Shown: piece after piece, positions 9,280 to 58,092 of the stretch
How the letters are laid out: the number at the start of each line of letters is the position of its first letter
Numbering within the stretch: the first letter of the stretch is position 1
From: a virus
Taxonomy: Duplodnaviria; Caudoviricetes
Reading direction: 5' to 3' (one strand)
Virus record (IMG/VR): IMGVR_UViG_3300042290_000649
Span: 1-58,092 of that record
DNA length: 58,092 nucleotides
The notes under the pieces: generated by a model
Told to the model about the DNA's origin: nothing
What the model saw: only the letters and a program-made list of their open reading frames with translations
Database searches by the model: none
Made by a program: the position numbers and the translations under genes

Positions 9280-9760
9280 CCGACTTCCCGCAGTGCGGGC
9301 ACTTCTTATCTATCTTCTCTGAGTCTAGCGGGCCAGTATCCATTGATGAGGCAATAAGTGCGTCAACGTCCTCTTGGTCGTAGCCCGTTGCTAGGAGGTC
9401 GCCATCTGCCGCTGCTGCTGATAGGAGCGCCGCAAGGGAATCTTCATTGTAGTCAGCCTTGTCGGAAACCCTGTTGTCTGCAAGCATAATGTTGCGCGCC
9501 CTTCGGTCGTCGACATCCAGGAAGATGACAGGGACTTGCTTCCAGCCAAGTTGTCGGACAGCCATAAGTCGGTGATTCCCGACCAGCACAAAGTTGGTTG
9601 ATTTCTGTGCAATAAGCACACCGTACCAGCCGTTCTGGCTGATGGAAGTAATAATCGCCCCAACGTCTCCGTCCCGAGGGTTATCGGGATGATTGGTAAT
9701 CTGGTCAATTTCTACCCAGGCTACCGAGACATCAGGGCGATCACTAGCGGCTTTCGCCAC
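9248..9760 (-). CDS. ParB/Srx N-terminal domain protein with a C-terminal CPHCG
   Basis: HPDNPRDGDVGAI..SI...G...VLVGNHRLMAVRQLG..VPV...LADNR; no HTH domain. Confidence 0.85.
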   Translation of the reverse strand: MAKAASDRPDVSVAWVEIDQITNHPDNPRDGDVGAIITSISQNGWYGVLIAQKSTNFVLVGNHRLMAVRQLGWKQVPVIFLDVDDRRARNIMLADNRVSDKADYNEDSLAALLSAAAADGDLLATGYDQEDVDALIASSMDTGPLDSEKIDKKCPHCGKSVSGSARSRPR

Positions 9761-26800: not shown

Positions 26801-29800
26801 GCGCTGGGCGGCAACACGTTCTTTTCTTGCAGCGTTATCTGCAACAACCTGCGCGTCATACTCTTCCTTGGTTGGCTCTGCTGCTGTTTTGGGTGCCTCT
26901 GCAGCCTTTGTCGCAGCCTCTTCAGCCTTCTTTGCCTCTTCTTCTTTTGCTTTTGCTTTCGCTGCATCAGCCGCGTTCTTCCTGTCGGACGCTGCTTTTT
27001 CCCTTGCCGCTGCGGCAGCGGAGCGGGCCTGCTGATCATCGTGAATCTTTTTCAATCGAGCGGCATCAGCGGCGTTTAGTTCTGCAATCTTGGCCTCGTC
27101 TGCATCCCTCTTTCTCTTTGCAACGACCGAGGGGTCAACACGTGCCGCCTCGTCGGGGCTAAGGCCAACTTCTGCACCCTCATCAATCTGTGCCTCCATC
27201 GGTGTTTCCAGGCGCGCCCTTGGGTCTTGCTTCCTGGCCCTCTTGCGCGCCGCTTCAGCCCGAGTCCCAGCGGTCTTGAGTCGCTCCTCGTCCCGCTTAG
27301 CGTTTCTGGCCATGTCCCTTTCTTGCCTTTCACGAATGAGTCCCTCGGTCTGCGCTGGCGTTAGCGTGGCAAGTTCATCGGTGCTAACGCCAAGTTCTTC
27401 TGCCTGATCAATCTCTGCCTCTCGTGGAGTAATGAGGCCGGAAAGCATATCCGCTCCGGCCGGAGTCTTCTTCTTTCTTGGCTTCTTTTCTTTCTTCGGC
27501 TTGGGCTTCTCTTCTTCGACTGGGGCGTAGGTGTCTGATGAGTCCTCTTCGAAAGATCCATCATCATCTGGCACGTCATCTTCGGAAGTCTCCGCCGCCT
27601 GCTTGCTTTTCTCTTCATTTGCCGCAATGATGTTTTTCAGTTTGGCAATCAGGCTGGCAACGACGCGCTGCTCTCCCGCCGGTACCGGCTCGCCAGCCTG
27701 GCGTCGATCCTTTTGCACGTCCTCCTCGTTGAGCACCATGTCGAGCAACTCTTTGGCGTCTTCGTTGTCCACGTCTAGCGTGCTGCGTCCCGCAACAATC
27801 TGAGCCATGATGTTATTCCAGGTTCTAGGTTTGTCCGACTGCTCCATGCCGCGCTGCTCTATCAGGTCCTTCTGCGCAGAGGTCAGCGCCAACTTCGAAC
27901 CGCCCTCGCGCGGCTCGATGGACGCCCATTCAGGAGGTAGCGTTGCTACTGGCGGTGGGAGGCGGGGACCTGCCTCTACTGTTGTGCTATCGGGAATCCT
28001 ACGCTCCAATTCCGCCGCTGCTTCCCCGGGCGGCAACATCTGAGTCGTATCAACCTGAATCTCATCTGCCTGCTTGGCCCTCTCTTCATCGCGCTTCTTT
28101 TTCATCGCGGCAAAATCGAACGTAAGCGGAATTTCTTCCTCACCGCCTGCGCCGAGAGGAACTACTCCCCCTTCTCTCTTGATCTTTCCAAGTTGTTCCG
28201 GCCCACCCTCTGTCTCCATCTTCCCAAGTTGTACTGCGTCGTCTTCTTCCTCACCGAATCCGTAAATCTGTCCGCGCTGCGCCTTAAGGCGTGCCTGCAT
28301 TAGGAGAATGTTTCGCCTTATTCTTTCTATCGGGAAAAGTTTTATTGTTTTGTTGCCGTTGCCCTTATCCTCTTCCTCCGTTGGCATCTCACCGCTTTCC
28401 AGTTCAGGCATAACATTCGCCAGGGCCGTCAGCAAGATTTGCTCCGCGATGCGGTCATCTATAACTTTTCCGTCGGACTTAAGGCCGCCCATTTGATTTT
28501 GAATCGATAGGGCGTAGTCTATGATTTCTTGCGGTATTCCTGCAGATAGGACATCGTCAGTCCTGGATATACCCCCGCCCAGTCTTGTGAGCCCGGCAAT
28601 GCCCGCCGCGCTGGGCGGCATGCCGCCAACAAAACCTGCGATATCAGGTCCCTTGTTGATAATTGCGTTTTCCAGGGACTCTCTTACTAGTGCGTACTGC
28701 CGCTCATCGGCCTTTCTTTCCTCTACCTCTTTCTTATTTAGCAATCCTATTCTTGCTTCATCAAGTTTCGACTCTGACGCGATAAGGTCGTCAATTTGCT
28801 TATCAAGACCTTGTGCGGTTTCCCTTAGGGTTGCCCTATCTTCCTCTGATCCATTGTCGTATTCGTCGGAGTCGTATATTGCGTCAATCTGTTCTTGCAG
28901 AGATTGAATTTTTGCGCTTGACGCCTTCAAGGCTTTGTCTATTTCGGCCAACTTGTCTTGGTCCTCGCCCGTAAAGGCCCCTACAGACTCCTGACGAGAA
29001 ATCTTCTTGAATGACTCATCGTAATCATCGCTAAACTCATAAGTTCTACTAAGGGGGACAAACCCGCGACCACGCACTCGGTCATGCGTAATCTGCTGCG
29101 ATTGCATCTTTGCCCGCTGCTCTTCTGAATATTGCGGTAGAAGGTTAATTTGATCCGCTCCAGAATACTCACCTCCGCGATACGCTCCGAGGCCACGCTG
29201 CTCTCGTGCGACCCCCAGTTTTACTGCTCGCTCTCTTTGGTCAAAAGGAATTACCTCGGTCAAATCAAATGCAGTTCCCAGCACCTCCTCACCCGGCTTG
29301 CGCGGATCAGTGAAACTCTGATCCCACATGCCAATCCAGGTGTCGACACCTGCCATAATTCTTGCGCGGATTTGCGCTTCGTTATCCTTAATAAATTTAT
29401 TAAGCGCCTCGCCAAGCCCCTTTGTGGTTGCAACAGAAGTTTTTGGAACGTTCTGGTCTACTCCGCCCGCCTCTTGCTGCGTTCCGCCAACAAGGTATCC
29501 CTCTTCCGGCTCAACGTTTTCAACAATAATTTGACCTTGCTTATCAATAGCAAGTTTTCTTGTTAGGCCGTCAGTAACAGCGGCGAGGATCTCCTCTGTT
29601 TTCATTGCCTCACGTGGCGCTTCGGCTTCTTCTCCGTATCCGTATGTTCTACTAATGCCTCCCCTGACGGACCCGATTGATGACCTTCTTGCATCGGACT
29701 CTAGATATGCCTCCCTTCCTGGGGCGGAGAGTCCACCAAACTTCTCAGCAACAACGTCTAGTGTTTCCTGCGTGAAGGTTCCGGTCCTTGGCGCAACTCC

Positions 29801-32800
29801 TCGATGATGCCCTTGGGTGTGACCATTCAATTGTGCCATAACGTTTGCAAGGTACTCGCCCGTAAATTTGTTGATATGCGCTATCCATTGTTCATACGGA
29901 GCGTCTTCGCTAATCGCCGGAACGTTCATGACATAGTCAGAAAGGATTCTCCGTAGTTTTGCACTGACTTCGCTGGGCAAATTATTGCCTGAGTTCTCAA
30001 GCGTCTCTTGGATTTTCATCATGTAGTCATAGATCGCCTCGTGAATTGGCTCGATGTCGCGGCTCAGGCCAACCGACCCCCTGCCGCCAATTGCGGCCAT
30101 GTGCCCACCTTCGTGTGAGGCGATAGCGCCAAAGCCCATCATTGGAACCAGTTCGCCGTCCTTCTTTGTGCGCATTTTTTCTGCTACTTGGAGCGATGCG
30201 TATGTTTGGTATCCGCCGTCAGGCTGCTCAACGCCCCTTGTGACATGAGAGTACCCAGGAGCATTTTGATACGTATCGTCTGTGCTATCCACCGTCGTAA
30301 CGCTTATGCCACGATTGACCGTTGGAATCTTCGCAAGCAAAGCAAGCAGTTCATTTGCCGCAGCAAAGGCCGCCGAATCCGCCGATACTTCATCTCCCTT
30401 GTGGACAACGGTAACTATTGCCTTGTCCGGTAGCGGTGGCAGATCTCCCCTATCCGCCGTAGTTGCGTGCGACTGGTCTACTTCTACCTGGGAGACTTGC
30501 AATCCCATTGATGCAAGGTAGTCAAGAACTGTCTGCGCAATAATTTTTGCCTCTGCCAATGAAACATTTTCGTTGTCTTTTGGATCTTTAACCCCCTTAC
30601 GGGCTGCATCGTCTTGCAGGTCATACGGGATCATGCCCATCCCGATAGATTGAATCTGCTCCGGTGTCAGCCCTTCAAGCGACGTAATCCTATTGAATTG
30701 AGACATTGCTGGGGTAAGCGGCGCTGTTTCCATGTTCCGTTGCATGACTGGGGCTGGGCGACCGACGCCTTGAGATGTTCTTACCGGGTCAAATACGTCA
30801 TATCCGTAAACTCTTGAGGAGCCATCGCCAAGTTGTGGGGCATCCGAAGCAAGGTCAGGGATGTATTCCTTAAACGCCGCTATTCGTTGCTTAAGCAACT
30901 CAAGATCTATTTTTGCCTGTCGCTCTTCTTCTGCAAGTTGCGAAAGAATCTCTGGGTCTTGTCCTACCAACTCAGCAAGCAGGGGGAAATTGCCAAGAAC
31001 TTCCATAATCTTTGGAACTCCCTGGATAATCTCGGCAAACTTTGTTCGGGTCTCAGCATTTCCAAGGTCGAACTTCCCTGGCTCAGCAGAAAGTGCCTTC
31101 AGATCTGCACGCTTCGCCTTGCCACCAACGGTTCCCTCTCCCGGTATCATTGCCCGCAGGGCATCCGGGTCCAGTAGATTCCTTGCCATCGCCTCTGCAA
31201 GAATCTTAGTAATTTCTTCTGGATCACCAGCGGTAACTGTTTCCGCTATTGCGCGGAGTTGCGATTCCTCTGCTGCCGCACCGTAATCGCCAAAGGGAAC
31301 ACCTGGTACATCTGCGCGACCGGTACCCGCGCCCCTTGTCTGCTTTACCGAGTAGGCATTTTTTGATGCCTGGGTCAAGGCATCTAGATTTGTTATAAGC
31401 GGCGTTAGAATATCCCTTGCAACAACTGCGGCAAGCGCGGGGCGATCGGATTCTGAAACCGCACCAGAAGTCGCAGCGCCGCTTTTAACGAAATCTAGTG
31501 CGCCAAGAACGCCGCCGCCTCCCTGGCCAAGAGCACCAACAACATCCTTGATTCTCTGCATCGCCGCCGCCGATTCTCTATTCATCTCACTTGGGTCAAT
31601 CTTCATCTTCTGCACTGCAGCCATGATGCTCATTAACCCAACAAGGTGATCACGAAGTTCTGATGCAATTTCTGGCTTTACCGTCTTACCAGACGAAAGC
31701 GTTGCTGTAATTTCAGCAAAAAGTGCTTCAATATTCACCACCGTGCGATCGACAGTATCTACAAACTCGGCGAGATCTTTTCCAGTTGCGGTAACTGTTT
31801 GAAGTTCAATTCCTCTCTTGCCTGTTTTTTCGATTCTTGTCGAAAGCATGGCGGCAACAGGATTGCCGATTTCCTCGTTTCTAACTGCCCCATCTTCTTC
31901 TCGGCTGTATGATGGATACGGCGAAAAGAGTTGGCTTACCCTTGCCAGTGCCAGGGGGTTTTGAACCCCGGCAATTGGGCTTCTTGATGGCCTCAGGACG
32001 CCCGTTTCCTCATCCTCAATAACCCCAAGTTGCCGGTCTTCTTCTATACCAATAGCGGCAAGAAGACCGGAAATTCCACCAGATGCTTTTACTCCACCCT
32101 TTGAAATTTCCCTAAGTTCTGCGCGAATAGTTGCAAGGCGCTCCGCTTCTACCTCTGTCCTGTTTTCAATTGCAGCAAGTTCTGTTTCTTCTATCTCTAG
32201 AAGTTGCACTCGCGCTCTGGCAATTCCCTTCGAAACACCGGTTGTTCCAATTTCCCTAAGATCGCCAGACGGCAGTACATCGCTAACGCTTCTGCCGCCG
32301 CTGCGGAGCCTGCGCATCCGCTCTTCAACTCCTCGGTCTTCATCTTCACGGCTAGAGACCATTGATATTGCCCTAAGGGCGGGGCTGCTCTGAATTGCCC
32401 TGCCGATGGCGGCCTCGGCGGCGATCCTTGCGGCGCCCTCCGGTACCGGCTCTGGGGGCAACGCGCCGCCTCGCAGGACTTCCACATCGGACTTCTTCCT
32501 GCGCCCAGTTGCTCTACCCGGCGTGTACGCCTTAGAAAGGATTTGATTACGGAATTCAGCGACCTCTTCATCAGTTCTTGGGGCTGCCGCCTTGAACTCC
32601 TCAATCATAGTGGCGGCAATTTCCTTCATGAACGTCTTGATCAACTTGTCAAAATCGATCTCTCCGATCACATCTTGAACCGCCTCTTGTATCCTTCTTT
32701 GGGCATCGATAACTGCAGAGGAGTACGCAACTTTCGCTTCTGCAATTTTTCTATCAAGTTCTTCCAATAGGGGAGTTGAAGATCGCAGGCTCGGCGTCCC

Positions 32801-34441
32801 TGCTTTTTCTAGCCTATCCAACTGTTCACGGAGTTGAGCATCTGATCGACCTTCCGGGTCCCTGATTGGCGCGCCAGAAGTTTTGACGCGGCCGTCCATA
32901 AATATCGGCTTTTCATATTCGCCAATTTGCCCCCGGGCTTTTGCCAGTTCTGTTTCTAGTCTTGCAAGACGATTACGCAATGCAGCAACTTCTGGAGATC
33001 TAAGTACTGACTCCGCAGCGCGTGCATCTGCTTCAATTTTTTCCTCTGGTACCCACTGTGTTGGGGTTTTGCTTACTATTTCTGGCCTGTTATCCAGCCT
33101 TTTTATTAAATCAAGAAGTTTTGCTGACTCGGCCGCGCCGAATACCGCAGCAGCACCTCGGCCGCCACGAAGAGCAATTGTCTCTTCCTGGAAATCAATG
33201 CTACTTCGGGCTTCAAATTCTTGCTCTCTTGCAGCAGCAAGTCTCTCACCATAAGGGCGCGCAGCAGACTGGTCTTTCTTTTGTCGAAAACTTTTTGTCC
33301 CGTCTGGCTCCTCAACCACATCGTAAGCGCGCTTGTTGTATTCAGGTTGAACTTTTGCAATTTCTTCTCTTGCAGCAGCAAGTCTTGCCGAATCGGCTCG
33401 AACCTGCTCTTCTATTTTTGCTATTTCACCAGAGATTTGAGCAATGTGCCTAAGATTGCGCGTTAATTCAGAAATGTCGTCGGAAGCGCTTGCGGTGCGC
33501 AGTTTTTCGTATTGAGCCCTTGCCCCACCCTCAAGTTTTTCCGGCTTATCAACTCTGTTCTTCTTGAGGATCGCCTCCATTCCGGCCTTTGCCGCATCTT
33601 GCAAGGCCTTTATGGAGGAGTCGATTTCTTTCTGAACCTCTGGCGCACGAGTGCCAGTCTCAACAAGTATTTCTTTCTTTCCAGAACTTCCAACCCTTGT
33701 GGGTGCTTCCCCCCTGGTAGCATCTATTATCCTTTTGTTTTCAATCGTAAATTCAGCCTGGGGAACAATGGCACCCAATTCTTTTTTAAGTCGAGCAACC
33801 TCATCCTCGGCCTCTTTTAACGACTTTGGGTCGATAAGCGGTCCGGTGTACGGCTTTAGTCTTGTGGACTCCTGCAATGCAAGGGTGATGTCGAGTCTCG
33901 ATTGCTCTGCTCGCGCTGATGCGGCCGTCTCATTTTCCCTTGCAAGGGCGGCCGCTGCCTCGTTCCGTAGGCGGACTAATTCACCAAGCGCAGCGCGCTG
34001 GGAATCAATGGCCGACGAACTCTCCTCCTCAATCTTCTTAACGCGCGCGGAAGCGGCCTCCAACTCCGGCATAGAGTCAAGCCTGGCCTTTACCGCCCTG
34101 GCAACATGCGCGGCGGCAAGGGCCTCCTGCCTACCCTGTGCCTCTATCGCAGCAGCGCGAGCCGCATCGAGTTGAGCGCGCCTCTTTGCTGCTGCCTCTG
34201 CAAACGAAGCCGTTTCTTCCGGCGTTGCCATTTTGAGTTTTGAGGCAGCGTCTACGGCCTTTTTTGCCGTCTCCGCAGCGCCGAGCGCCGTCTCTGCTGC
34301 CTTAGTTAGCCCATCAATAGAATCGGCAACGCTCTCAATGGATTCGGCAACTGCGTCAATCTCGGTTGCTGACTGACTTGCGCCGACGACATCAATATTT
34401 ATCTTTATGTCTTGATCGTCGTTACCGCCGAAGTCATCCAT
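17813..34441 (-). CDS. Giant tape measure protein (5542 aa) with a large N-terminal insert
   Basis: Tape measure domain IRDIANVTPF...AFGF...IAYALGQMNSAGRV..DMMQLANAGV at aa ~2990 (nt ~25500-24850), then hydrophobic helices; located between the chaperones and the tip protein. Confidence 0.92.
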   Translation of the reverse strand: MDDFGGNDDQDIKINIDVVGASQSATEIDAVAESIESVADSIDGLTKAAETALGAAETAKKAVDAASKLKMATPEETASFAEAAAKRRAQLDAARAAAIEAQGRQEALAAAHVARAVKARLDSMPELEAASARVKKIEEESSSAIDSQRAALGELVRLRNEAAAALARENETAASARAEQSRLDITLALQESTRLKPYTGPLIDPKSLKEAEDEVARLKKELGAIVPQAEFTIENKRIIDATRGEAPTRVGSSGKKEILVETGTRAPEVQKEIDSSIKALQDAAKAGMEAILKKNRVDKPEKLEGGARAQYEKLRTASASDDISELTRNLRHIAQISGEIAKIEEQVRADSARLAAAREEIAKVQPEYNKRAYDVVEEPDGTKSFRQKKDQSAARPYGERLAAAREQEFEARSSIDFQEETIALRGGRGAAAVFGAAESAKLLDLIKRLDNRPEIVSKTPTQWVPEEKIEADARAAESVLRSPEVAALRNRLARLETELAKARGQIGEYEKPIFMDGRVKTSGAPIRDPEGRSDAQLREQLDRLEKAGTPSLRSSTPLLEELDRKIAEAKVAYSSAVIDAQRRIQEAVQDVIGEIDFDKLIKTFMKEIAATMIEEFKAAAPRTDEEVAEFRNQILSKAYTPGRATGRRKKSDVEVLRGGALPPEPVPEGAARIAAEAAIGRAIQSSPALRAISMVSSREDEDRGVEERMRRLRSGGRSVSDVLPSGDLREIGTTGVSKGIARARVQLLEIEETELAAIENRTEVEAERLATIRAELREISKGGVKASGGISGLLAAIGIEEDRQLGVIEDEETGVLRPSRSPIAGVQNPLALARVSQLFSPYPSYSREEDGAVRNEEIGNPVAAMLSTRIEKTGKRGIELQTVTATGKDLAEFVDTVDRTVVNIEALFAEITATLSSGKTVKPEIASELRDHLVGLMSIMAAVQKMKIDPSEMNRESAAAMQRIKDVVGALGQGGGGVLGALDFVKSGAATSGAVSESDRPALAAVVARDILTPLITNLDALTQASKNAYSVKQTRGAGTGRADVPGVPFGDYGAAAEESQLRAIAETVTAGDPEEITKILAEAMARNLLDPDALRAMIPGEGTVGGKAKRADLKALSAEPGKFDLGNAETRTKFAEIIQGVPKIMEVLGNFPLLAELVGQDPEILSQLAEEERQAKIDLELLKQRIAAFKEYIPDLASDAPQLGDGSSRVYGYDVFDPVRTSQGVGRPAPVMQRNMETAPLTPAMSQFNRITSLEGLTPEQIQSIGMGMIPYDLQDDAARKGVKDPKDNENVSLAEAKIIAQTVLDYLASMGLQVSQVEVDQSHATTADRGDLPPLPDKAIVTVVHKGDEVSADSAAFAAANELLALLAKIPTVNRGISVTTVDSTDDTYQNAPGYSHVTRGVEQPDGGYQTYASLQVAEKMRTKKDGELVPMMGFGAIASHEGGHMAAIGGRGSVGLSRDIEPIHEAIYDYMMKIQETLENSGNNLPSEVSAKLRRILSDYVMNVPAISEDAPYEQWIAHINKFTGEYLANVMAQLNGHTQGHHRGVAPRTGTFTQETLDVVAEKFGGLSAPGREAYLESDARRSSIGSVRGGISRTYGYGEEAEAPREAMKTEEILAAVTDGLTRKLAIDKQGQIIVENVEPEEGYLVGGTQQEAGGVDQNVPKTSVATTKGLGEALNKFIKDNEAQIRARIMAGVDTWIGMWDQSFTDPRKPGEEVLGTAFDLTEVIPFDQRERAVKLGVAREQRGLGAYRGGEYSGADQINLLPQYSEEQRAKMQSQQITHDRVRGRGFVPLSRTYEFSDDYDESFKKISRQESVGAFTGEDQDKLAEIDKALKASSAKIQSLQEQIDAIYDSDEYDNGSEEDRATLRETAQGLDKQIDDLIASESKLDEARIGLLNKKEVEERKADERQYALVRESLENAIINKGPDIAGFVGGMPPSAAGIAGLTRLGGGISRTDDVLSAGIPQEIIDYALSIQNQMGGLKSDGKVIDDRIAEQILLTALANVMPELESGEMPTEEEDKGNGNKTIKLFPIERIRRNILLMQARLKAQRGQIYGFGEEEDDAVQLGKMETEGGPEQLGKIKREGGVVPLGAGGEEEIPLTFDFAAMKKKRDEERAKQADEIQVDTTQMLPPGEAAAELERRIPDSTTVEAGPRLPPPVATLPPEWASIEPREGGSKLALTSAQKDLIEQRGMEQSDKPRTWNNIMAQIVAGRSTLDVDNEDAKELLDMVLNEEDVQKDRRQAGEPVPAGEQRVVASLIAKLKNIIAANEEKSKQAAETSEDDVPDDDGSFEEDSSDTYAPVEEEKPKPKKEKKPRKKKTPAGADMLSGLITPREAEIDQAEELGVSTDELATLTPAQTEGLIRERQERDMARNAKRDEERLKTAGTRAEAARKRARKQDPRARLETPMEAQIDEGAEVGLSPDEAARVDPSVVAKRKRDADEAKIAELNAADAARLKKIHDDQQARSAAAAAREKAASDRKNAADAAKAKAKEEEAKKAEEAATKAAEAPKTAAEPTKEEYDAQVVADNAARKERVAAQRRARAAAKKAAVAAEQEAAAIESSAVESDRVAAVERATVAESQQQVPAQGAAPARPAAPAGPPAPPSRPPAPPTPPAGDGQQPDDTSRVDAEVNEAIARIGLGSKLPALEAIVARIAEEVEKMVNAKVDEGAKVGISYDRDALKSQIIESNVGGFKDLLTYLDGIAEQSEKLRSQKAMPIMGEKENAGTPAAVAQRIGNATWLPDGLKRQELIKIAEDFDKLGEEVALLIAMSRQGKLKIQQEIQSTAAGKGAGGDDAGDGSAPGGGGSGWGDEGYKAPNLENVYKGMEHLKQLSNIYRELRPQVLHLTGNIDQSSLMMQKQQQAAENVTKALGTYMNVNTGIIRSLKTQVGRAATFLFVQQIGREIATVVEHLQSGVFKFNQVLENTTVGFNTLFANTLQAATSAENDLVPAYNSVGVQIGFMKEQALTFNEALLLTSKAADNMVARIRDIANVTPFRFQPLVEASLKMKAFGFEAREIPDMVNAISNAVAALGGNDEKIDRIAYALGQMNSAGRVYQNDMMQLANAGVAGYRMLSEKMLTDLIALKKYAMGELSGLPDYVIDEMKRLQSVIGSANFVKSFGTMDQMIETLKDPKRAEGLIRNMAKRGFLMGSVAARAITEGMDRQYQGSADRLSRTMTGALSTIADLSQNFMAMAFKPLYDSVRDTIVELGQFMLKSQQITIFIESFAKNVANFVNSLKGFGPALEKVAQIFINVFVGGFGAALERGSQFGAVFTDIVDKVGSGLALIGDILSDKVGRGLATAATLGTIFAKAIMANPMIATITLIIVAISGLADAIRKNTFGFGTYLSVFVDSIKGFITIIADALATIAKELATSAISSFIASMAVAIGALMPFLTVLLGTFSLLLKVLTPFAPILGLLLGIFIAFKTATMLWQVATATLAKPIAGIVTAWNSASDAVTKYGSAVRLTADRHADLRAEKISARDYVKGDNGEVLMDKNGKPIINYNRATEKINSQGYPDPETGERATSMVAAGGKVKGFLGNVEDTVFRGPLGFLKGILTQPREKIFGAMAPDFGDGFTLRHQDSGPGHMSPVFTGQKLQSRFESFQKGGVLQDLGMQLSNAGILEIPGMKDGKLDASANKYTTAWGKNFETLVLIEREASYVMTKAFEKVEAMAARYKSLMDSGKTGEANAVIAEFKKSKEGRMILPMLMRAKGDKRKLGKVSDDEIGTLLGEFHSGGLKLSKRDMRRIETLPPEVQKLIYGEVGKRVASGDSKLTKSESEELEKVRARGISSAALKGGSVGMIQKMAAAMSNFYDVINKKTAQLIKNVPLLNKLQTVKLGGAGTGLSQIQQGEDGGYYYTGKDGNITKRRVSENVVASRRTMRGGAFGKLAGLGGMLSQGGALLGIGSASSRAAGMPNAVLAGLEMFGMGNILGPDLKQTLSQKSGLFQSLGNGIGSMIGMGVGGMIPIIGPIIGPAIGSMIGELAGSMADSIIRGSEAAVEQQKARIEANKKLGLSEEDAKAAAELQSKIDKSLGLTGEGAGGIPFIVNGVQSLPKDVNTEKLTNQLSRKDILTLYDYDKSGSIDGGTEMTNAIAAINSEIMMNLRMTKNIFEKDSAGNYIYTGEDDVANRSKATGMGYVDVPTTASSGIGATPEQYAAYDKLIAQKAAIAAGSVDPNAFAAMFPDLPQTANELRTLNLTEITNPTNKSDKGLGMNQVLQLAGFAFNKEQNASTAFDDAQLRQYLQSGKNFEGVIKQLQEAKDGGALLSAASQKLLDYATLLKVETANSYTDEFGNIREMYKGGIARLVSYDAAQVTATQKVGEDGKTIVEPGKSFTDLLGYKAVEMGTGIGGGDTKYNSLVMQTLTQIGRIDPIDAMLEAGVIKSIDEMVGWSAQQLKDALAKTVEYFDAFNKRAKELTPKVDLKSSRRELMDEFGSELGYKLFDQFFEQRQKLSALEAERKKLGGDSELSRLQMLEDATKDKFKTTTTRTYEGGAIVGSSTDRQAMPSILTTAEAAKLARIRAIDKEILATRYQVFKIGVLEDKRQSASEAIRNKAIQDEAALARFKSDYSAQLSIITTKITQNKSLTRDEIDLMEREAALRDKIFNLTEREVDLGQSLAILEGQGISISNKELLNNQALLQILARKADLQAIANKSSQSAVHWAQLEAQAKVQGMQLAEKQNDLSMARLEEMEKQNVTSFGDAAVAASRDAWWSETSQAQQRAYEAFMARTETLRKTIRLMETNLNSLNAKLKDNPYGYSAEELTKIRELVAQAQGALVGGDQGTTTAAAIQRNTSLLSTMASVAQKAYDRVKKAQQTTHDEYIKQLDEQGKAIDERYRKRTQEQTEKGLLEQLQLSGLQMRSDSADPIEAAKAFYDAKNNLAEFYIEKQKDDELKAIEDEKERYSKQFQENTDAQEQIYSASITRMQNRFEAVSKVLGMDSIPGETLNDMLRLTMTGTLPGMSEAMKRMSTTDIFKSILANAEDVATMGKQTLALGETMGNLEFGQFAAEGGTYSIPASLSNGLSAFNKFTSASGFNVFRGDNEESGLLATFMNEAVSAGLKYTDVGVKDSKTGLDKVFTGATAIRDYLKSIKPAGGFGTAEKDKEKYAVLEYAEALLSGKNTFGTTAKMAILAQRTLEQGLTDFETATKTNINMASILEADLSDEVINKFIAASGETPTAESVKKLRDMVRDTYADVLARFDLEEYVKFADSTDSRIGELSNTVDSLDDAMSHLAGTLGSAQKDLTTLDKILFGTTYDNTAPIPGIDAATEQLQSVTDAIEATRSAFESTMTNLEAYADSLQGPIGAFHQLAEAMALVAGITLPTTGTVAPTIPMRSLLQTPDGLEERMQRPVSEKYNPRGYYDGQGVSGHTNLPPGMVGHAMLLGVYDAVLDRVIREEDEMSDRLKARLKELEAIRFLGSEEPEDEYRQVTAMPVPPITEFNAELKARLAEYAAAFASSIQTVGINGAQTTVTMYNQIPITITINDAQDMNTADLAEQVEEAVGRAIRASGGSYISSPTGSISG

Positions 34442-52692: not shown

Positions 52693-52995
52693 ATGCACCA
52701 AGACAGCCCTTCCACCCAAATCGCCGCTCTCCGTGGCTCTAAGGACCTTCTCCTGGAGTTCTGGGCCCCTTGGTGCGAGCCGTGTAAGCGCACGATGCCA
52801 GAAGTAGACCGTTTCGCAGCCCTTAACCCTCAGGTAGAGGTCGTCAAAATCAACGTGGATGTCGAGCGAGCCCTCACAAACGAGTGGGAAGTCCGCACCA
52901 TTCCGATGATGGTGTACGTACCAGTAGATGGAGCCCCACGCCAGATCATTGGCTTTATCCGCGCCGAGGAAATTGCGCGAAAGATTGCCGGCTGA
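52693..52995 (+). CDS. Thioredoxin
   Basis: EFWAPWCEPCK, KINVD, VRTIP; AAGGAG RBS before ATG 52693. Confidence 0.92.
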   Translation: MHQDSPSTQIAALRGSKDLLLEFWAPWCEPCKRTMPEVDRFAALNPQVEVVKINVDVERALTNEWEVRTIPMMVYVPVDGAPRQIIGFIRAEEIARKIAG

Positions 52996-53612
52996 TGCAT
53001 ACGGCCGTGATCGTTGCCGGCGGTGAGGCGCGTCGGTGGAAAAATTACGGTGGGGTGGCAAAGCATTTTGTAGAAATTGATGGCGAACGCCTCATTGACC
53101 GCACCATTTGCCAATCTTCCGCACTGTTTGAACGCACGGTCGCTGTTGTGCCCGAATCTAACTACGTTTCAGGGGTTGACCTGGAAATCATCGCCCCAGA
53201 AGAGACGAGAGCGCTCGAACCATGGAAGTTCCTCTCCTCAAAAGACGAGTGGAGCAGCGTTCGAACCACCCTGCTGTACGGAGACGTCTACTTCACCGAT
53301 TCGGCAATAAAAAAAATTGCAGCAGCAGAAGCGAAATTAGCATTTTTGATGCGCTGGACAAAGTCAGATCGCACAGGAAAGCGATATGGCGAGATCTACG
53401 CCATCAGTTTTACTGGATCTATGCATGGGCAGATCATTGCAGCCATGGAGGACTTCACCCCAGACCTAAGTATCCCTGCACGTGCTGGGTGGCACTTGCT
53501 ACATCGACTGTGGTCCGCCGCAACGATGGTTGAGATTGATGACGAGACGGAAGATTTTGATAACCCCGAGGATTACGAACGCTGGATGGTGGCTACGGGA
53601 AGAAGGGGTTGA
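52995..53612 (+). CDS. NTP transferase (MobA/LicC-like nucleotidyltransferase)
   Basis: AVIVAGGEARRW...K...IDGERLIDR, LYGDVYF, DFDNPED; TGATG overlap. Confidence 0.85.
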   Translation: MHTAVIVAGGEARRWKNYGGVAKHFVEIDGERLIDRTICQSSALFERTVAVVPESNYVSGVDLEIIAPEETRALEPWKFLSSKDEWSSVRTTLLYGDVYFTDSAIKKIAAAEAKLAFLMRWTKSDRTGKRYGEIYAISFTGSMHGQIIAAMEDFTPDLSIPARAGWHLLHRLWSAATMVEIDDETEDFDNPEDYERWMVATGRRG

Positions 53613-53657
53613 CACTCAACCCCTGCGGATTGGAGAAAAAATTTAGGTGCAGCCTTT

Positions 53658-53698
53658 GAAAACGCCAACCCCCCCGCCTGACTCGGCGAGGGGGTTGG
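53658..53698 (-). terminator. Terminator ending the leftmost cassette
   Basis: CCAACCCCCTCGCC-gagtca-GGCGGGGGGGTTGG-CGTTTT on the minus strand. Confidence 0.75.
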
Positions 53699-53717
53699 GA
53701 TAGTCCAGAGCCGATAA

Positions 53718-53798
53718 CTAGCCGCGCCGCATCACGGCGAGGATGACGATCCAAGTAGCCGCGATGTAGGCGAGGGTGAGCAGTCCCTCGCCGCTCAC
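53718..53798 (-). CDS. 26-aa single-helix membrane peptide
   Basis: MSGEGLLTLAYIAATWIVILAVMRRG; GTG overlaps the upstream TGA; GAGGTGGAGG upstream. Confidence 0.6.
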   Translation of the reverse strand: MSGEGLLTLAYIAATWIVILAVMRRG

Positions 53799-54016
53799 GC
53801 CTCCACCTCGCGGAGTGCCTCGCGTACGGCTGCCGTATGAGCCGCGCACGCTGGGACTACGAGGGCTGCCGTGCGGCGCGCGCCGTAGAGTCCGTGCGTT
53901 GGCGGGTACTGCTCGGCGACGCTGACGCTGACGAGGGCGACCGCGCCCTCGCCGCACGCCGTTGCGCCGCACGAGCGAACCTGATCCGATCCGAGCCGTG
54001 TGATTGTTGCGCTCAT
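53795..54016 (-). CDS. Hypothetical protein (C-x4-C...CxxH)
   Basis: GGGAGGCACT-ATG; 73 aa. Confidence 0.7.
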   Translation of the reverse strand: MSATITRLGSDQVRSCGATACGEGAVALVSVSVAEQYPPTHGLYGARRTAALVVPACAAHTAAVREALREVEA

Positions 54017-54048
54017 AGTGCCTCCCGATTGTGTGCCGTAGTGAGTAG

Positions 54049-54199
54049 AGGGGGCGACGCGCTACGGCACGCCGCCCCCTTGCCAGAGTGAGACTGACCG
54101 CCCGACTGACCGCCCGACTGACTGCCACCATTGCGCCGTAGCGAAGAGGATGGACTGACTGCGGGACTGACTGCGGGACTGACTGCTCCCCCTGACTGC
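54049..54199 (-). ncRNA. Candidate structured RNA/leader: rod with three symmetric C(A/G)GUCAGU internal loops, cUACGg apex and a 3' hairpin
   Basis: Six 12-nt-period GACTGACYG units (54092, 54104, 54116, 54153, 54165, 54177) whose linkers switch between CCCG and CGGG across the centre; downstream of the promoter motif at 54203. Confidence 0.6.
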
Positions 54200-54202
54200 T
54201 TC

Positions 54203-54235
54203 ACTATCTCACCCCGCCGCCCTGAATCCACCGAA
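54203..54235 (-). promoter_or_regulatory. Cassette promoter motif, variant copy
   Basis: TTCGGTGGATTC-N11-GTGAGATAGT. Confidence 0.65.
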
Positions 54236-54344
54236 GGGCGACGCACGCCGTAGGGCACGCCGAAGGGCGCGCCGAAGGCGACCCGAAGGGTGAAGAATAG
54301 GAAGATGGAAACCACGGGAAGGCGGGCATAGGTTATGCGTAAGA

Positions 54345-54389
54345 CATAACACATAACACATAACACATAACCCATAACCCGCCAGAAAC
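54345..54389. repeat. Heptad array 1: 5 x (N)CATAAC + CCAGAAAC
   Basis: Units at 54345, 54352, 54359, 54366, 54373. Confidence 0.9.
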
Positions 54390-54427
54390 AAAAAAGGGGC
54401 GACGACCCCGAAGGATCGCCGCCCCTT
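54390..54427 (-). terminator. Cassette terminator
   Basis: AAGGGGCGGCGATCC-ttcg-GGGTCGTCGCCCCTTTTTT. Confidence 0.85.
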
Positions 54428-54431
54428 GTGC

Positions 54432-54497
54432 TCACCGCCGACCGACGATCCACGCCATTACGACGACGACCGCGACCAGATACAACACCTCACCCAC
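54432..54497 (-). CDS. 21-aa membrane peptide
   Basis: MGEVLYLVAVVVVMAWIVGRR; paralogue of 57293..57358. Confidence 0.65.
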   Translation of the reverse strand: MGEVLYLVAVVVVMAWIVGRR

Positions 54498-54645
54498 GCG
54501 CCACCGCGTAGACGAGATGCGCCGCGAAGTACGCCGCCGCCGCGACGATGCCGTACCACGCGATACGCCCGACGAGGGCGCGATTCTTGCGCTCCTGCTC
54601 CATCTCCGCATAGGTGCGAAGGCTGACGATTGTTCTCCGATTCAT
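54490..54645 (-). CDS. 51-aa protein with a C-terminal TM helix
   Basis: MNRRTIVSLRTYAEMEQERKNRALVGRIAWYGIVAAAAYFAAHLVYAVARG; GAGAGGGCACT-ATG. Confidence 0.7.
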   Translation of the reverse strand: MNRRTIVSLRTYAEMEQERKNRALVGRIAWYGIVAAAAYFAAHLVYAVARG

Positions 54646-54702
54646 AGTGCCCTCTCTTTCTGCGACGACGCGCCGCCCCGAAGGGCGACGCGCCGCCGCG
54701 CT

Positions 54703-55155
54703 CTACTTTACAAACTCCTCGCCGTTCACAACGACCGACGAGATGCGCTCCAAGCCATAGGCGCGGTGTGAGTGCCGCTCACCCTTGCCGTAGCACGACG
54801 ACCCCTCACGGGAAGCGTACGGGCAAGCCGTTGCCTCGCCGTACTCGTTCATCGCGTAGACGAGGAAGCCGAGCGACTGCGTGCCTTTCTTGGAGAGGCG
54901 TACGGGATCGCCGCCGCCCCAAGCAGGATCGGGGCGACCGCTGACGCGTACCACCGAGATCGTGCCGCCGTCTACCTCGTGCGTGCTGATTGTCTGCTGC
55001 GCGGCGAAGGTGTGCCCTTCCACCGCTTTATTCTCCGCATCGGCGGCGCGCTTGGCGAGAACCTTCTCGCTCGTTGGAAGCGTGCTCGCCACGAGGGTGA
55101 ACACGCGCCCCTTCGCCGCTGCGATTGCGGCGTGGATCTGCTCTGCCGTTGCCAT
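54703..55155 (-). CDS. 150-aa protein, possible SH3/Sm-like (WYL-related) barrel
   Basis: AAAGGAGAG RBS, start 55155; GRVFTLV...LVY...RAYGLERISSVVVNGEEF. Confidence 0.65.
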   Translation of the reverse strand: MATAEQIHAAIAAAKGRVFTLVASTLPTSEKVLAKRAADAENKAVEGHTFAAQQTISTHEVDGGTISVVRVSGRPDPAWGGGDPVRLSKKGTQSLGFLVYAMNEYGEATACPYASREGSSCYGKGERHSHRAYGLERISSVVVNGEEFVK

Positions 55156-55200
55156 AGTGCGCTCTCCTTTCATACTGCGGGGAAGCCCCCCGACTCCTAT

Positions 55201-55233
55201 ACAATGCCACGCCCCTACGCTGAATCCACCGAA
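55201..55233 (-). promoter_or_regulatory. Cassette promoter motif
   Basis: TTCGGTGGATTC-N11-GTGGCATTGT. Confidence 0.75.
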
Positions 55234-55280
55234 GCCGCCGAGGTGCTCCCCGAAGGGTGAAGCGCACGCCGAAGCGCGGC

Positions 55281-55373
55281 GGATTCTTTCGGATTGGATT
55301 ATGGGGATACGGGTACGGGTAAGCGTATACACATAACACATAACCCATAACCCATAACACATAGCCCAGAAAC
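55281..55373. repeat. Spacer array 2: GGATT units, ACGGGT units, 5 heptads, CCAGAAAC
   Basis: Heptads at 55332, 55339, 55346, 55353, 55360. Confidence 0.9.
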
Positions 55374-55375
55374 AC

Positions 55376-55410
55376 AAAGAGGCGACACCCCCGAAGGGAT
55401 GCCGCCTCTT
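55376..55410 (-). terminator. Cassette terminator
   Basis: AAGAGGCGGCATCCC-ttcg-GGGGTGTCGCCTCTTTG. Confidence 0.8.
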
Positions 55411-55429
55411 GCCGTTGCCCCTGTGTGCG

Positions 55430-55819
55430 CTACCTGCTCTGTGGCTCGTAGGTGTCCATCCACTCGCCGCAGAGTCGCGTGCGCTCTACTGCCTCTGCGC
55501 CCTTCGCAGTCCTGCTGCTCGTTTCTGGATCGTTAGTCCACGCGCGAACCTGCGCGATGGTGAGTCCATCGGCGACTGTTTCGCTTGGATACCGACCACC
55601 CGCAAACACGCGAACGATTCGGAAAAGCGTTTCCGTTTCGTCTAGCGATGCCCCGCAAGCGAAGCACGCGGGGGTGTCCTCGTTCACATCGGGGCTATAC
55701 ACGGTGTCCATCGCCTCTGTTGCGCCCTGTGTGCCATCGGCACAATCGCGGCACATCACGACCCCTGCCGTTGTGTCCACATAGCCGACCAGAACGATGC
55801 CGCTTCCTGTGTTCGTCAT
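55430..55819 (-). CDS. Hypothetical protein with CxxC...CxxC and a C-terminal DPETSS domain
   Basis: GGAAGGAGCGCACT-ATG; 129 aa. Confidence 0.75.
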   Translation of the reverse strand: MTNTGSGIVLVGYVDTTAGVVMCRDCADGTQGATEAMDTVYSPDVNEDTPACFACGASLDETETLFRIVRVFAGGRYPSETVADGLTIAQVRAWTNDPETSSRTAKGAEAVERTRLCGEWMDTYEPQSR

Positions 55820-55862
55820 AGTGCGCTCCTTCCATACTGCGGAGAATCTCTCCGACTACTAA

Positions 55863-55895
55863 ACAATGCCACACGGCAACCCCGAATCCACCGAA
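55863..55895 (-). promoter_or_regulatory. Cassette promoter motif
   Basis: TTCGGTGGATTC-N11-GTGGCATTGT. Confidence 0.75.
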
Positions 55896-55933
55896 CGACC
55901 CGAAGGGCAAGGGGAAGGGTGAAGCGTGCGACT

Positions 55934-56030
55934 GATTGGATTGGATTGGATTGGATTGGGTGAACGGGTACGGGTAATGGGTAATACATAACGCATAACG
56001 CATAACGCATAACCAATAACCCCCAGAAAC
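55934..56030. repeat. Spacer array 3: (GATTG)5, ACGGGT units, 7 phased TAA heptads, CCAGAAAC
   Basis: cgggTAAtgggTAAtacaTAAcgcaTAAcgcaTAAcgcaTAAccaaTAAc. Confidence 0.9.
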
Positions 56031-56032
56031 GC

Positions 56033-56066
56033 AGAAGGGGCGAGCCGCCCCGCGACCCGCCCCCTC
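56033..56066 (-). terminator. Cassette terminator
   Basis: GAGGGGGCGGGTCGC-ggg-GCGGCTCGCCCCTTCT, weak U tract. Confidence 0.7.
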
Positions 56067-56080
56067 GTTGTGTGTGTGTC

Positions 56081-56482
56081 CTAGATCGTGCGCCCGTCGT
56101 ACATCGGGAAGCCGCCATCGTTGAGCACGCGCTCAATCTTGACGATCTCCGCATCCGTGAAGCCGCGCAACTCGTCATCGTGTACCAGTACCGCATCGCC
56201 AGCCAAGCCGCCACCTGCTAGGTAGAGCGGCGCGCTCTTCGTTGCCACCGCGAACACATCGCACGCGGTGAGGTTGATACGCGGATTCTGTACGAGAAGC
56301 CCCTCCTCGTCTACCAGAAGCGCAACGGGTACGCCGCCGAGATTGCCGCGCCCGACCATCTCCACATACTGGCAACCGATCGCGTCATACATTGGCTGTA
56401 AGCCGTTCACGCCGCGCTCCGTCTTCACGATGCGATGCGTGCCATCTTCTAGCGCGCGGATTACATACATTGACCCTGCCAT
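56081..56482 (-). CDS. DUF3846-like protein
   Basis: LQ....IGCQYVEMV...LLVDEEGL...P.IN..A...LAGDAVL...GFTDAEI; AAGGAGG RBS, start 56482. Confidence 0.8.
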   Translation of the reverse strand: MAGSMYVIRALEDGTHRIVKTERGVNGLQPMYDAIGCQYVEMVGRGNLGGVPVALLVDEEGLLVQNPRINLTACDVFAVATKSAPLYLAGGGLAGDAVLVHDDELRGFTDAEIVKIERVLNDGGFPMYDGRTI

Positions 56483-56530
56483 TTGTGTGCCTCCTTCTTT
56501 CTTCTTACGGGGAAGCCCCCCGATGAGTAG

Positions 56531-56563
56531 ACAATGCCACACATCGGGGAGCAATCCACCGAA
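56531..56563 (-). promoter_or_regulatory. Cassette promoter motif (no upstream terminator or heptad array)
   Basis: TTCGGTGGATTG-N11-GTGGCATTGT, 2 nt after the upstream stop codon. Confidence 0.75.
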
Positions 56564-56565
56564 AC

Positions 56566-56724
56566 CTACTTTGCCCATCGCCTACGCTTCATCTCCTCGC
56601 GGAAGCGTGCGATTGCCTCGCGCTTTGTGTATCCGTAGTAGGAGATGGATTCCAAATAACCATCAACCACGGCGGAGATAACCCACGAGCCGTTGTGCCA
56701 TTGGCGCGTTGCGCTAATCGTCAT
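56566..56724 (-). CDS. 52-aa hypothetical protein
   Basis: MTISATRQWHNGSWVISAVVDGYLESISYYGYTKREAIARFREEMKRRRWAK; AGGAGG RBS. Confidence 0.75.
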   Translation of the reverse strand: MTISATRQWHNGSWVISAVVDGYLESISYYGYTKREAIARFREEMKRRRWAK

Positions 56725-56787
56725 AACCCCTCCTAGCGTTGGCGGCGGAGCCGAAGCCCCGCCGCCGTTGTGAGGCGAAGCCGTCGC

Positions 56788-57033
56788 CTAGCGGTAGTAC
56801 TTCTCGCGTACTTCTTCCGCCGCGATTGCGGCGAGAGAGTCTACGAGGTAGAGGCGAATCTGCTCAACCGCGAGCAAACGGCGCTCTACGCAATGGCGTG
56901 AATCGCACGCCGCGAGAGAAGCGCAAGAGCCTTGCTCTTCGTTCTCGGTAATGTTCTTGGCGATGGCGAGAATCTGATTCTCAACCTGCGCCTCGGTGAG
57001 TACCTGCTCACCGATGAGATGGCGGTATGGCAT
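56788..57033 (-). CDS. 81-aa hypothetical protein
   Basis: GAGGAGGT RBS, start 57033 (MPYRHLIGEQV...). Confidence 0.7.
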   Translation of the reverse strand: MPYRHLIGEQVLTEAQVENQILAIAKNITENEEQGSCASLAACDSRHCVERRLLAVEQIRLYLVDSLAAIAAEEVREKYYR

Positions 57034-57081
57034 ACCAGACCTCCTCAATGTTTGAGCGGTATCGCCGCTCCCGATGAATAC

Positions 57082-57114
57082 ACAATGCCACACCCCGCGC
57101 CGCAATCCACCGAA
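57082..57114 (-). promoter_or_regulatory. Cassette promoter motif
   Basis: TTCGGTGGATTG-N11-GTGGCATTGT. Confidence 0.75.
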
Positions 57115-57160
57115 ACCCGCAACGGCACGCGGAGCCGAGCAGCAACGGCGAGGGCAGGGC

Positions 57161-57253
57161 GGATACGGAGCAATGGGGATACGGGTACGGATACGGGTAA
57201 TGGATAACTCGTAACACATAACGCATAACCCGTAACTCATAACCGCCAGAAAC
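57161..57253. repeat. Spacer array 4: ACGG(G/A)T units, 6 TAAC heptads, CCAGAAAC
   Basis: Units at 57203, 57210, 57217, 57224, 57231, 57238. Confidence 0.9.
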
Positions 57254-57292
57254 AAAGAAGGGCGAGCCGCCGAAGCGACCCGCCCTTCTTTG
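57253..57292 (-). terminator. Cassette terminator
   Basis: CAAAGAAGGGCGGGTCGC-ttcg-GCGGCTCGCCCTTCTTTG. Confidence 0.85.
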
Positions 57293-57358
57293 CTACCTAC
57301 TGCGCATCAACCACGCCATCACCGCAATAACGGCGACGAGGTACAGCGCCTCACTCAC
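57293..57358 (-). CDS. 21-aa membrane peptide
   Basis: MSEALYLVAVIAVMAWLMRSR; GGAG upstream; paralogue of 54432..54497. Confidence 0.65.
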   Translation of the reverse strand: MSEALYLVAVIAVMAWLMRSR

Positions 57359-57527
57359 TTGGCTCCGCGTACTTCACGCGGCGAGCCTCAGCGATAGCGC
57401 GCTTGCGATCATCACCGCGCTTCTCGCGGCGATGCTTCTCACAACAATCACCATCAGCAGCAGGACGCTTCGTCCAACGGACGGAGTGCTCTGGGATGGC
57501 GATCTTCTCAACACCACGACGATTCAT
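57351..57527 (-). CDS. 58-aa basic protein
   Basis: MNRRGVEKIAIPEHSVRWTKRPAADGDCCEKHRREKR...; GAGGAGG RBS. Confidence 0.7.
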   Translation of the reverse strand: MNRRGVEKIAIPEHSVRWTKRPAADGDCCEKHRREKRGDDRKRAIAEARRVKYAEPSE

Positions 57528-57587
57528 ACACCCTCCTCTGTGGCTCGCGGCGACGGAGCCGAAGCCCCGCCGCCGTCCGCCGATTGT

Positions 57588-57917
57588 TTAGGCGACGACT
57601 TCTGTCGCCGACTCTGCGAGTTCCAGAACATCGCTCTGGTCTGCGTTGCCCTCCAACGCGGTGCGAATCTTGGCGATGATTGCGGTCAGTCGCTCGTTCT
57701 CAGCGACCACCTCAGCGACCATCTCCTCTACTGAGTCCAGAGCCTCCTGAACCTCATCAGCGTGCGACTCAGCGGAGTTCGCTGAGTCCGTTGCCGAACT
57801 GGCGTAGTCCTGAGCATCAGAAGCCTCTGATGCTGCGTCCTGCGCCGCTGACGATGCGCGCTCCGCGCTGCGGCGTGCCTCCGCTAGGATGTCCGTGAGT
57901 TTCTGTGTATCGGTCAT
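57588..57917 (-). CDS. Acidic Ala/Ser/Glu-rich coiled-coil protein
   Basis: GAGGAGGT RBS; 109 aa. Confidence 0.75.
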   Translation of the reverse strand: MTDTQKLTDILAEARRSAERASSAAQDAASEASDAQDYASSATDSANSAESHADEVQEALDSVEEMVAEVVAENERLTAIIAKIRTALEGNADQSDVLELAESATEVVA

Positions 57918-57963
57918 AAGACCTCCTCACTTGGGAAGCGATCACAGCGCCTCCTCTACTTCT

Positions 57964-57996
57964 ACAATGCCACACCCCTGTGGTGAATCCACCGAA
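57964..57996 (-). promoter_or_regulatory. Cassette promoter motif
   Basis: TTCGGTGGATTC-N11-GTGGCATTGT. Confidence 0.75.
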
Positions 57997-58049
57997 CTTC
58001 CCGACGAGGTGCGCGACGGCACGAGGTCAGGGTCAGCAGGATTGTGGAG

Positions 58050-58092
58050 CGGTGATACGGGAGTTCGGATACGGGTAATGGGTAATGGGTAA
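58050..58092. repeat. Start of spacer array 5, truncated by the window end
   Basis: ggatACGGGTAATGGGTAATGGGTAA, same pattern as arrays 3 and 4. Confidence 0.8.

Follow-up and report, generated by a model that had tools for sequence, protein, structure and literature searches.

Three micro-ORFs of a lake phage

In the 58,092-bp contig IMGVR_UViG_3300042290_000649 of IMG/VR, which represents an uncultured tailed phage from a lake and which was analyzed in its entirety (hereafter, the window), we recognize three very small open reading frames (micro-ORFs) on the minus strand that are very likely to be real, translated genes. These are A3 (57293..57358; 21 amino acids [aa]), E3 (54432..54497; 21 aa), and F3 (53718..53798; 26 aa), all of which begin with GTG and, by hydrophobicity, belong to the highest-ranking small ORFs anywhere in the contig. 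Comparison with related phages supports purifying selection on the proteins that they would encode, and the features of these peptides suggest that we are dealing with genuine translated genes whose product probably acts at the membrane. The three ORFs had been picked out in an earlier examination of the nucleotide sequence without database searches (the sequence-only reading), and their positions, strand, and translations were borne out. Gene callers drop ORFs of less than approximately 30 codons; hence, peptides of this kind are invisible in phage annotation.

Comparative evidence for selection on the peptides

Relatives of the window were recovered by several kinds of searches. Scans with a promoter pattern and a peptide motif yielded two IMG/VR contigs that are ∼86 to 92% identical to the window; a search with a nearby PD-(D/E)XK nuclease yielded 34 loci, ranging from 97% down to 60% protein identity; and searches with E2 and A2, the genes immediately upstream of E3 and A3, added seven metagenome loci and no new viral contigs. 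The gene arrays of L013/L001-L003, L015, L019, L044, and L026 were examined in full, and the other loci were covered by profile and a small-ORF filter.

Between the window and L013, the ratio of nonsynonymous to synonymous substitution rates (dN/dS) is 0.29 for A3, 0.34 for E3, and 0.06 for F3, and that of the flanking genes lies between 0.11 and 0.41, with the exception of E2 (1.8 between the window and its closest relative, from small numbers). When the micro-ORF changes between the window and its relatives are pooled, 18.2 of the 35 are synonymous and 16.8 are nonsynonymous, against an expectation of 26% synonymous (binomial P = 0.001). F3 by itself differs from its L013 orthologue by one residue change and five synonymous changes (binomial P = 0.007), and it retains 92% nucleotide identity to the relative versus 71% for the preceding gene, F1, which diverges much faster. 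In a six-frame test of the window and a relative, the frame proposed by the sequence-only reading was the only one free of stops in all three ORFs of both phages, and it also had the lowest pooled ratio of nonsynonymous to synonymous differences per site (pN/pS) of the six frames, at 0.33. The antisense frame that shares the same third codon positions had a pN/pS of 0.43 but contains stops, and the remaining frames ranged from 0.93 to 2.27. Likewise, the reading frames are maintained in related contigs from IMG/VR and JGI. The protein-level selection that the sequence-only reading had surmised is thus upheld by the orthologues, the dN/dS values, and the six-frame test, and the comparative data suffice to call these micro-ORFs genes.

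That reading had further placed all three peptides in a single family. This holds for A3 and E3, which are identical at 12 of the 20 residues after the start codon while differing at 21 of 60 nucleotides, 11.5 of these differences being synonymous (P = 0.008 for the synonymous excess in this paralogue pair); an open frame with at least this degree of identity arose in 0.3% of 20,000 random-mutation simulations. It does not extend to F3, for which homology to A3 and E3 cannot be demonstrated and which has in common with them only its size, position, charge pattern, and a tryptophan at residue 16.

Orthologues of A3 are found in L013 (18531-18466; 21 aa) and in L044, a phage with 78% identity (19324-19262; 20 aa, with a TTG start), so that three family 1 variants, those of the window, L013, and L044, occupy this position. 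E3 is represented by five variants of 19 to 21 aa with canonical starts (window, L013, L051/L052, L049/L050, and L047), which diverge down to ∼35% identity. All five overlap the E2 stop and end 2 to 6 nucleotides (nt) ahead of the terminator. A profile built from five family 1 members and run against 19,954 translated segments recovered only the expected loci at E values below 1e-7, with the next match at E = 2.2; the members used to build the profile match by construction, and those of L051, L049, and L047 were recognized by position and by eye. A fourth paralogue was detected in L002 (7213-7278; 21 aa), with an ATG start and a strong Shine-Dalgarno sequence 7 nt upstream. This paralogue comes first in its cassette, directly behind a promoter, and what follows it is a further gene rather than a terminator. 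In all, there are two family 1 copies in the window and three in a relative.

Sequence features of the peptides

We compared 16 micro-ORFs of the window and its relatives, whose products are 19 to 27 aa long and have a mean Kyte-Doolittle hydropathy of 1.15 to 2.59. They are built to a recurrent plan, namely, an acidic N terminus (net charge of −1 in the first five residues of 15 of the 16), a hydrophobic core of 14 to 18 residues that includes an interface tryptophan, and, in most cases, a basic C terminus (a net positive charge over the final five residues in 11 of the 16). In family 1 (the A3/E3/P4 type), this takes the form of a peptide of 19 to 21 aa with Met1, an acidic residue at position 2 or 3, Trp16, and a basic tail; Met1 and Trp16 are invariant across the nine aligned members. 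A single helix, a length of <50 aa, and a positive-inside charge bias are the attributes by which small inner-membrane regulatory proteins are recognized, and the micro-ORF products display all of them. The suggestion of the sequence-only reading that these are membrane peptides is accordingly favored by the asymmetry of an acidic N terminus and a basic C terminus, in addition to the orthologues, the dN/dS values, and the six-frame test, and we regard them as predicted single-helix membrane peptides.

Searches of curated libraries place them outside known families. Pfam returned no family for the three peptides. A search of NCBIfam with nine peptides gave no match to a toxin family, the only listed match being aroB for one peptide at E = 6.3. 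In PHROGs, A3 had two matches, to families of unknown function, at E values of 0.3 and 0.36, and E3 and F3 had none; there was no sequence or profile similarity to known superinfection exclusion families in PHROGs at a meaningful E value. No Rfam family reached its gathering score. The peptides therefore appear to constitute a narrow family of small phage membrane peptides, together with positional analogues, that is new in the sense of being absent from the curated family libraries.

Position within the cassettes

The GTG start of each micro-ORF overlaps the stop of the gene preceding it on the minus strand, as had been noted from the sequence, by 8 nt for A3, 8 nt for E3, and 4 nt for F3. 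The respective upstream genes are A2 (57351..57527; 58 aa; a basic, soluble protein with 94% nucleotide identity to the relative), E2 (54490..54645; 51 aa; one predicted membrane helix), and F1 (53795..54016; 73 aa). At the other end, the stops lie just before a GC-rich terminator hairpin with a T-run, also as reported earlier: the hairpin of cassette A (57253..57290, minus strand) starts 2 nt past the A3 stop, that of cassette E (54394..54427, minus strand) starts 4 nt past the E3 stop, and the array-closing terminator (53665..53699, minus strand) starts 18 nt past the F3 stop and faces a convergent plus-strand gene (52884-53612). In L015 and L019, too, the terminal peptide gene has this closing hairpin behind it.

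The sequence-only reading had taken these peptides to be, as a rule, the last gene of each cassette. This proved too broad: only three of the six cassettes of the window (A, E, and F) end in a micro-ORF, B, C, and D being devoid of one, and the L002 paralogue, with its place at the head of a cassette, shows that "always the last gene" is wrong. Since that paralogue precedes another gene, the family is not a by-product of terminator-proximal sequence either.

The final position of the entire array is held in the window by F3. In all five lineages compared (the window, L013/14, L044, L015/16, and L019), the array closes with a hydrophobic ORF of 25 to 27 aa, and these ORFs belong to three unrelated sequence types (a window type, an L044 type, and an L015/L019 type). 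L026, at 64% identity, lacks a terminal peptide of this kind; it has a separate cassette for a 59-aa protein whose N-terminal part forms a hydrophobic helix. Across the five lineages, one and the same position at the end of the early array is filled by tiny hydrophobic peptides that are unrelated in sequence between the types.

The E2 homologues fall into 12 clusters of 50 to 51 aa, with a 51-aa and a 50-aa C-terminal type, and a fused E2-E3 form was absent among homologues of 28 to 90 aa. As a separate observation, E2 of the window differs from its closest relative by 11 nonsynonymous and 2 synonymous changes, the small numbers behind its dN/dS of 1.8.

Turnover and points against a membrane role

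Several results weigh against the interpretation of the micro-ORFs as genes for membrane peptides. The A3 and E3 orthologue pairs are not significant singly (P = 0.11 and 0.14), there being few sites per ORF, and a hydrophobic core of 14 residues, the lower limit here, is on the short side for crossing a membrane. E3 is intact in only five of nine lineages: it is absent in three (L015/L048, L019, and L053), in which the terminator directly follows E2, and ambiguous in L044, where the frame is open and hydrophobic but has ATA in place of the start. The A3 slot of L015 is occupied by a sequence-unrelated hydrophobic ORF of 19 aa without a basic tail. Some contigs of relatives from the lake runs join across 57288-57361, so that just A3 is lacking or replaced, or across 53697-54662, so that E2, E3, and the whole of cassette F are lacking or replaced; these joints, with a likeness of 82 and sides of 31 to 32 nt, are hints only. 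Moreover, in the related loci, GTDB genome contigs, and viral contigs searched, family 1 was found only in a narrow clade of phages. The GTDB genome contigs gave 484 pattern matches, none of which was confirmed with the family 1 profile. Of the 56 pattern matches in viral contigs, the sole one confirmed (L062) is AT-rich, unrelated, and without cassette context, and it was set aside as a chance match. Finally, F3 may have a role as RNA besides coding, because its region folds with a z score of −3.2 on both strands and shows one double compensatory change; such a role is a misfit for A3 or E3, whose folds are unremarkable (z scores of −1.65 and −0.78).

Where a micro-ORF has been lost, the whole segment is gone rather than decayed. 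The peptides are a dispensable, accessory set that changes fast, and an accessory function would be one that is readily gained, lost, and replaced.

Alternative explanations

We weighed four other accounts of the micro-ORFs. One is that it is translation in cis that matters, a ribosome stopping 2 to 4 nt from the stem melting the hairpin and thereby tuning read-through into the next cassette or protecting the 3′ end of the mRNA, with the peptide being incidental. The placement of the A3 and E3 stops, which recurs in L013, L044, L047, L049, and L051, is in keeping with such a device, and cassettes without a micro-ORF have their stops 18 to 27 nt from the stem; the clean pattern of presence and absence would also suit a regulatory add-on. 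We nevertheless hold it to be quite unlikely, because it predicts neither the excess of synonymous change nor the conserved residues and charge pattern, and because the L002 paralogue lies ahead of a gene rather than a terminator and the F3 stop is as far as 18 nt from its hairpin. A related concern is that the ORFs are nonfunctional, being either chance open frames or the outcome of constraint on an RNA structure or antisense element. Open frames are indeed abundant in GC-rich DNA, the window itself has about 20 different hydrophobic small ORFs, and close relatives have lost or replaced micro-ORFs. The six-frame test and the pooled synonymous excess argue against this explanation, as does the removal of the entire segment, without decay, wherever an ORF is absent. 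The fold of F3, with its one doubly changed pair, could be read in favor of an RNA element, but two other changes in F3 break predicted pairs, and A3 and E3 lack a comparable fold. Taken as a whole, a nonfunctional origin is very unlikely.

The sequence-only reading had entertained type I toxin-like peptides, that is, membrane-depolarizing toxins under the control of an antisense RNA. Their size and hydrophobicity do resemble those of the smallest known type I toxins. However, the micro-ORFs have no promoter of their own, as their starts overlap upstream genes within multigene cassettes, with which they would be cotranscribed and translationally coupled; their setting is a phage early-gene array rather than a stand-alone locus. 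The only promoter-like sites on the opposite strand, at 55149-55176 and 57941-57968, adjoin none of the peptides and are no more numerous than in shuffled sequences, and no known antitoxin RNA (Rfam, at gathering score) or toxin family (NCBIfam and Pfam) was found. With no antisense partner seen, the toxin reading is unsupported, and we consider it highly improbable. There is also the possibility that the hydrophobic stretch is a C-terminal membrane anchor, appended when a programmed +1 frameshift carries the ribosome past the stop of the upstream gene. The micro-ORFs are indeed in the +1 frame relative to the upstream genes, and the frames of E3 and F3 are open far upstream, giving extended ORFs of 59 and 137 aa. 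Yet that of A3 is closed six codons upstream, no slippery site is conserved (the codons before the stop differ among the window, L013, and L044), the peptides of L015, L019, and L002 are separate genes with their own ribosome-binding sites, and, within the range of 28 to 90 aa, none of the E2 homologues exceeds the 50 to 51 aa given above. Frameshifting is accordingly extremely improbable.

Predicted action at the membrane

We return to the interpretation that we favor, in which the micro-ORFs encode peptides that act at the membrane. The micro-ORFs would be transcribed from the repeated promoters of the cassette array, presumably early in infection, and most would be translated by coupling to the upstream gene, given that their starts overlap its stop; in some relatives, a dedicated ribosome-binding site would serve instead. 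The single-helix peptides may then insert into the host cytoplasmic membrane. From the acidic N terminus and basic C terminus, the positive-inside rule predicts an orientation with the N terminus outside and the C terminus inside. E2, with its basic N terminus and one helix, would adopt the opposite orientation (N terminus inside, C terminus outside), so that E2 and E3 could pair in an antiparallel manner like a split hairpin. Early in infection, a peptide acting at the inner membrane of the host might bind and modulate a membrane protein of the host or the phage, E2 being the obvious candidate for E3, or it might perturb the membrane so as to hinder the entry of competing phages. The payoff would be the exclusion of competing phages or the takeover of the host. 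Our confidence in any specific target is much lower than in membrane action as such, and membrane-complex modulation or superinfection exclusion, as proposed in the sequence-only reading, is a reasonable guess.

A bolder version can be formulated, although we deem it unlikely: no smaller membrane effectors encoded by a phage would have been described than these peptides, a multicopy set of 19 to 27 aa per peptide that is expressed early; they would either pair with a phage helix, as in a split helical hairpin of E2 and E3, or self-assemble into a viroporin-like leak, and thereby lower the membrane potential or block an inner-membrane entry route, resulting in superinfection exclusion or host takeover; and the array would end in a fixed socket that receives unrelated peptides in different lineages.

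Should an exclusion phenotype or a membrane target come to light, these micro-ORFs would represent a very small and easily synthesized class of phage effectors; otherwise, they document the turnover of microgenes between close phage relatives.

Several known systems offer points of comparison. The small bacterial inner-membrane regulatory proteins KdpF, MgtS, MgtR, AcrZ, and PmrR are likewise of <50 aa, with one hydrophobic helix and no enzymatic domain. Proteins of this type are often encoded at operon ends or overlap their neighbors and act by binding a larger membrane protein; the phage peptides differ from them in lacking sequence similarity, in being multicopy, and in being shorter (19 to 27 aa). 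Ibs, TisB, ShoB, and Fst, which exemplify the shortest classes of type I toxins, are comparable in length, extreme hydrophobicity, and a possible membrane-perturbing action, whereas the phage peptides are operon internal, with coupled translation and no promoter, antisense RNA, or family match of the type I kind. The superinfection exclusion proteins T4 Imm, HK97 gp15, and P22 SieA are also phage-encoded, accessory inner-membrane proteins that vary between relatives, but they are several-fold longer, and the lake phage peptides had no meaningful PHROGs match.

Among the published accounts, PMC11237401 describes Gp11 of the Staphylococcus phage PhiNM1 as a small membrane protein produced early that blocks cell division; it resembles the peptides considered here in being a small membrane protein from an early gene, and it acts on membrane-bound proteins of the host. 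Conserved intergenic micro-ORFs of Enterobacteriaceae, as presented in PMC11188072, span 15 to 70 codons, are mostly hydrophobic or potentially transmembrane, and are under purifying selection; in a fraction of them, the start lies no more than 10 nt from the stop of the preceding gene or overlaps with it. Those ORFs are chromosomal and lie in AT-rich intergenic regions, in contrast to the lake phage set, which resides in a GC-rich array and includes paralogous copies. Small proteins of phages are the subject of a review (PMC11323111).

The phage and its cassette array

The contig encodes a portal protein, an SU10-type major capsid protein, a prohead protease, a terminase, and tail fiber proteins, which identify it as a tailed phage. 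The array had no blastn match in cultured phages, and the best match of the portal protein, in Bacillus phage SP-10, has 26% identity; there is thus no cultured relative or host to serve as a guide. DNA nearly identical to the window occurs in 23 lake-water metagenome DNA runs. The stretch is also present in one freshwater RNA run (share of 0.08), and contigs from RNA libraries, mostly 90 to 95% alike, overlap the cassettes; such overlap is no proof of transcription.

The six cassettes are arranged on the minus strand from 58092 down to ∼53650, running inward from one end of the genome, and probably constitute the early region of the phage. A promoter opens each cassette and is followed by one to three small genes, all with strong ribosome-binding sites, by a terminator in the form of a GC-rich hairpin, and then by heptamer repeats in tandem and a second short repeat. 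The 33-nt promoter pattern has five exact copies in the window, versus none in 100 shuffles, and one variant; the exact copies include those of cassette A (57964..57996, minus strand) and cassette E (55201..55233, minus strand), and the variant (54203..54235, minus strand; repeat family D4) precedes cassette F. A scan of metagenome contigs for the pattern gave no matches. In a looser scan of viral contigs, L008, L009, L011, and L012 gave single matches devoid of heptamer blocks or arrays and were taken as chance occurrences. The contig breaks off within an intercassette spacer, and the arrays of relatives run on, no fewer than 13 promoter copies being present in one of them; hence, the array of the window is incomplete.

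The cassette promoters present a peculiarity of their own. All of those in the window (53650-58092), L013, L015, L016, L019, L044, L025, and L026 have an identical 9-nt extended −10-like element. Located ∼13 nt upstream of it is an element that is uniform within a phage and wholly different between close relatives, with four types in total; in the relatives with 64% identity, a canonical −35 hexamer at a 17-nt spacing occupies the site of this variable element, and L016 has one promoter of each of two upstream-element types. The pattern resembles a concerted exchange of a −35 element or operator at 8 to 14 promoters, perhaps matched to a phage-specific factor.

Blocks of 3 to 10 tandem heptamer repeats, followed by the second short repeat, lie behind nearly every terminator and are kept even in the relatives with 64% identity (window 57200-57250, 55990-56045, 55330-55385, and 54335-54385; L026 8700-13497). 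The 5′ leader of cassette F additionally has two blocks of 12-nt tandem repeats (54080-54186 and 54188-54259; family D6) and a weak match to RAGATH-16 (E = 0.05, well under the gathering score). In L026, a tRNA-like sequence recognized by eye adjoins the end of the array (∼9640-9715). Elsewhere in the window, two adjoining giant ORFs on the minus strand (11031-17804, 2,257 aa; 17813-34441, 5,542 aa) take up ∼40% of the 58-kb contig.

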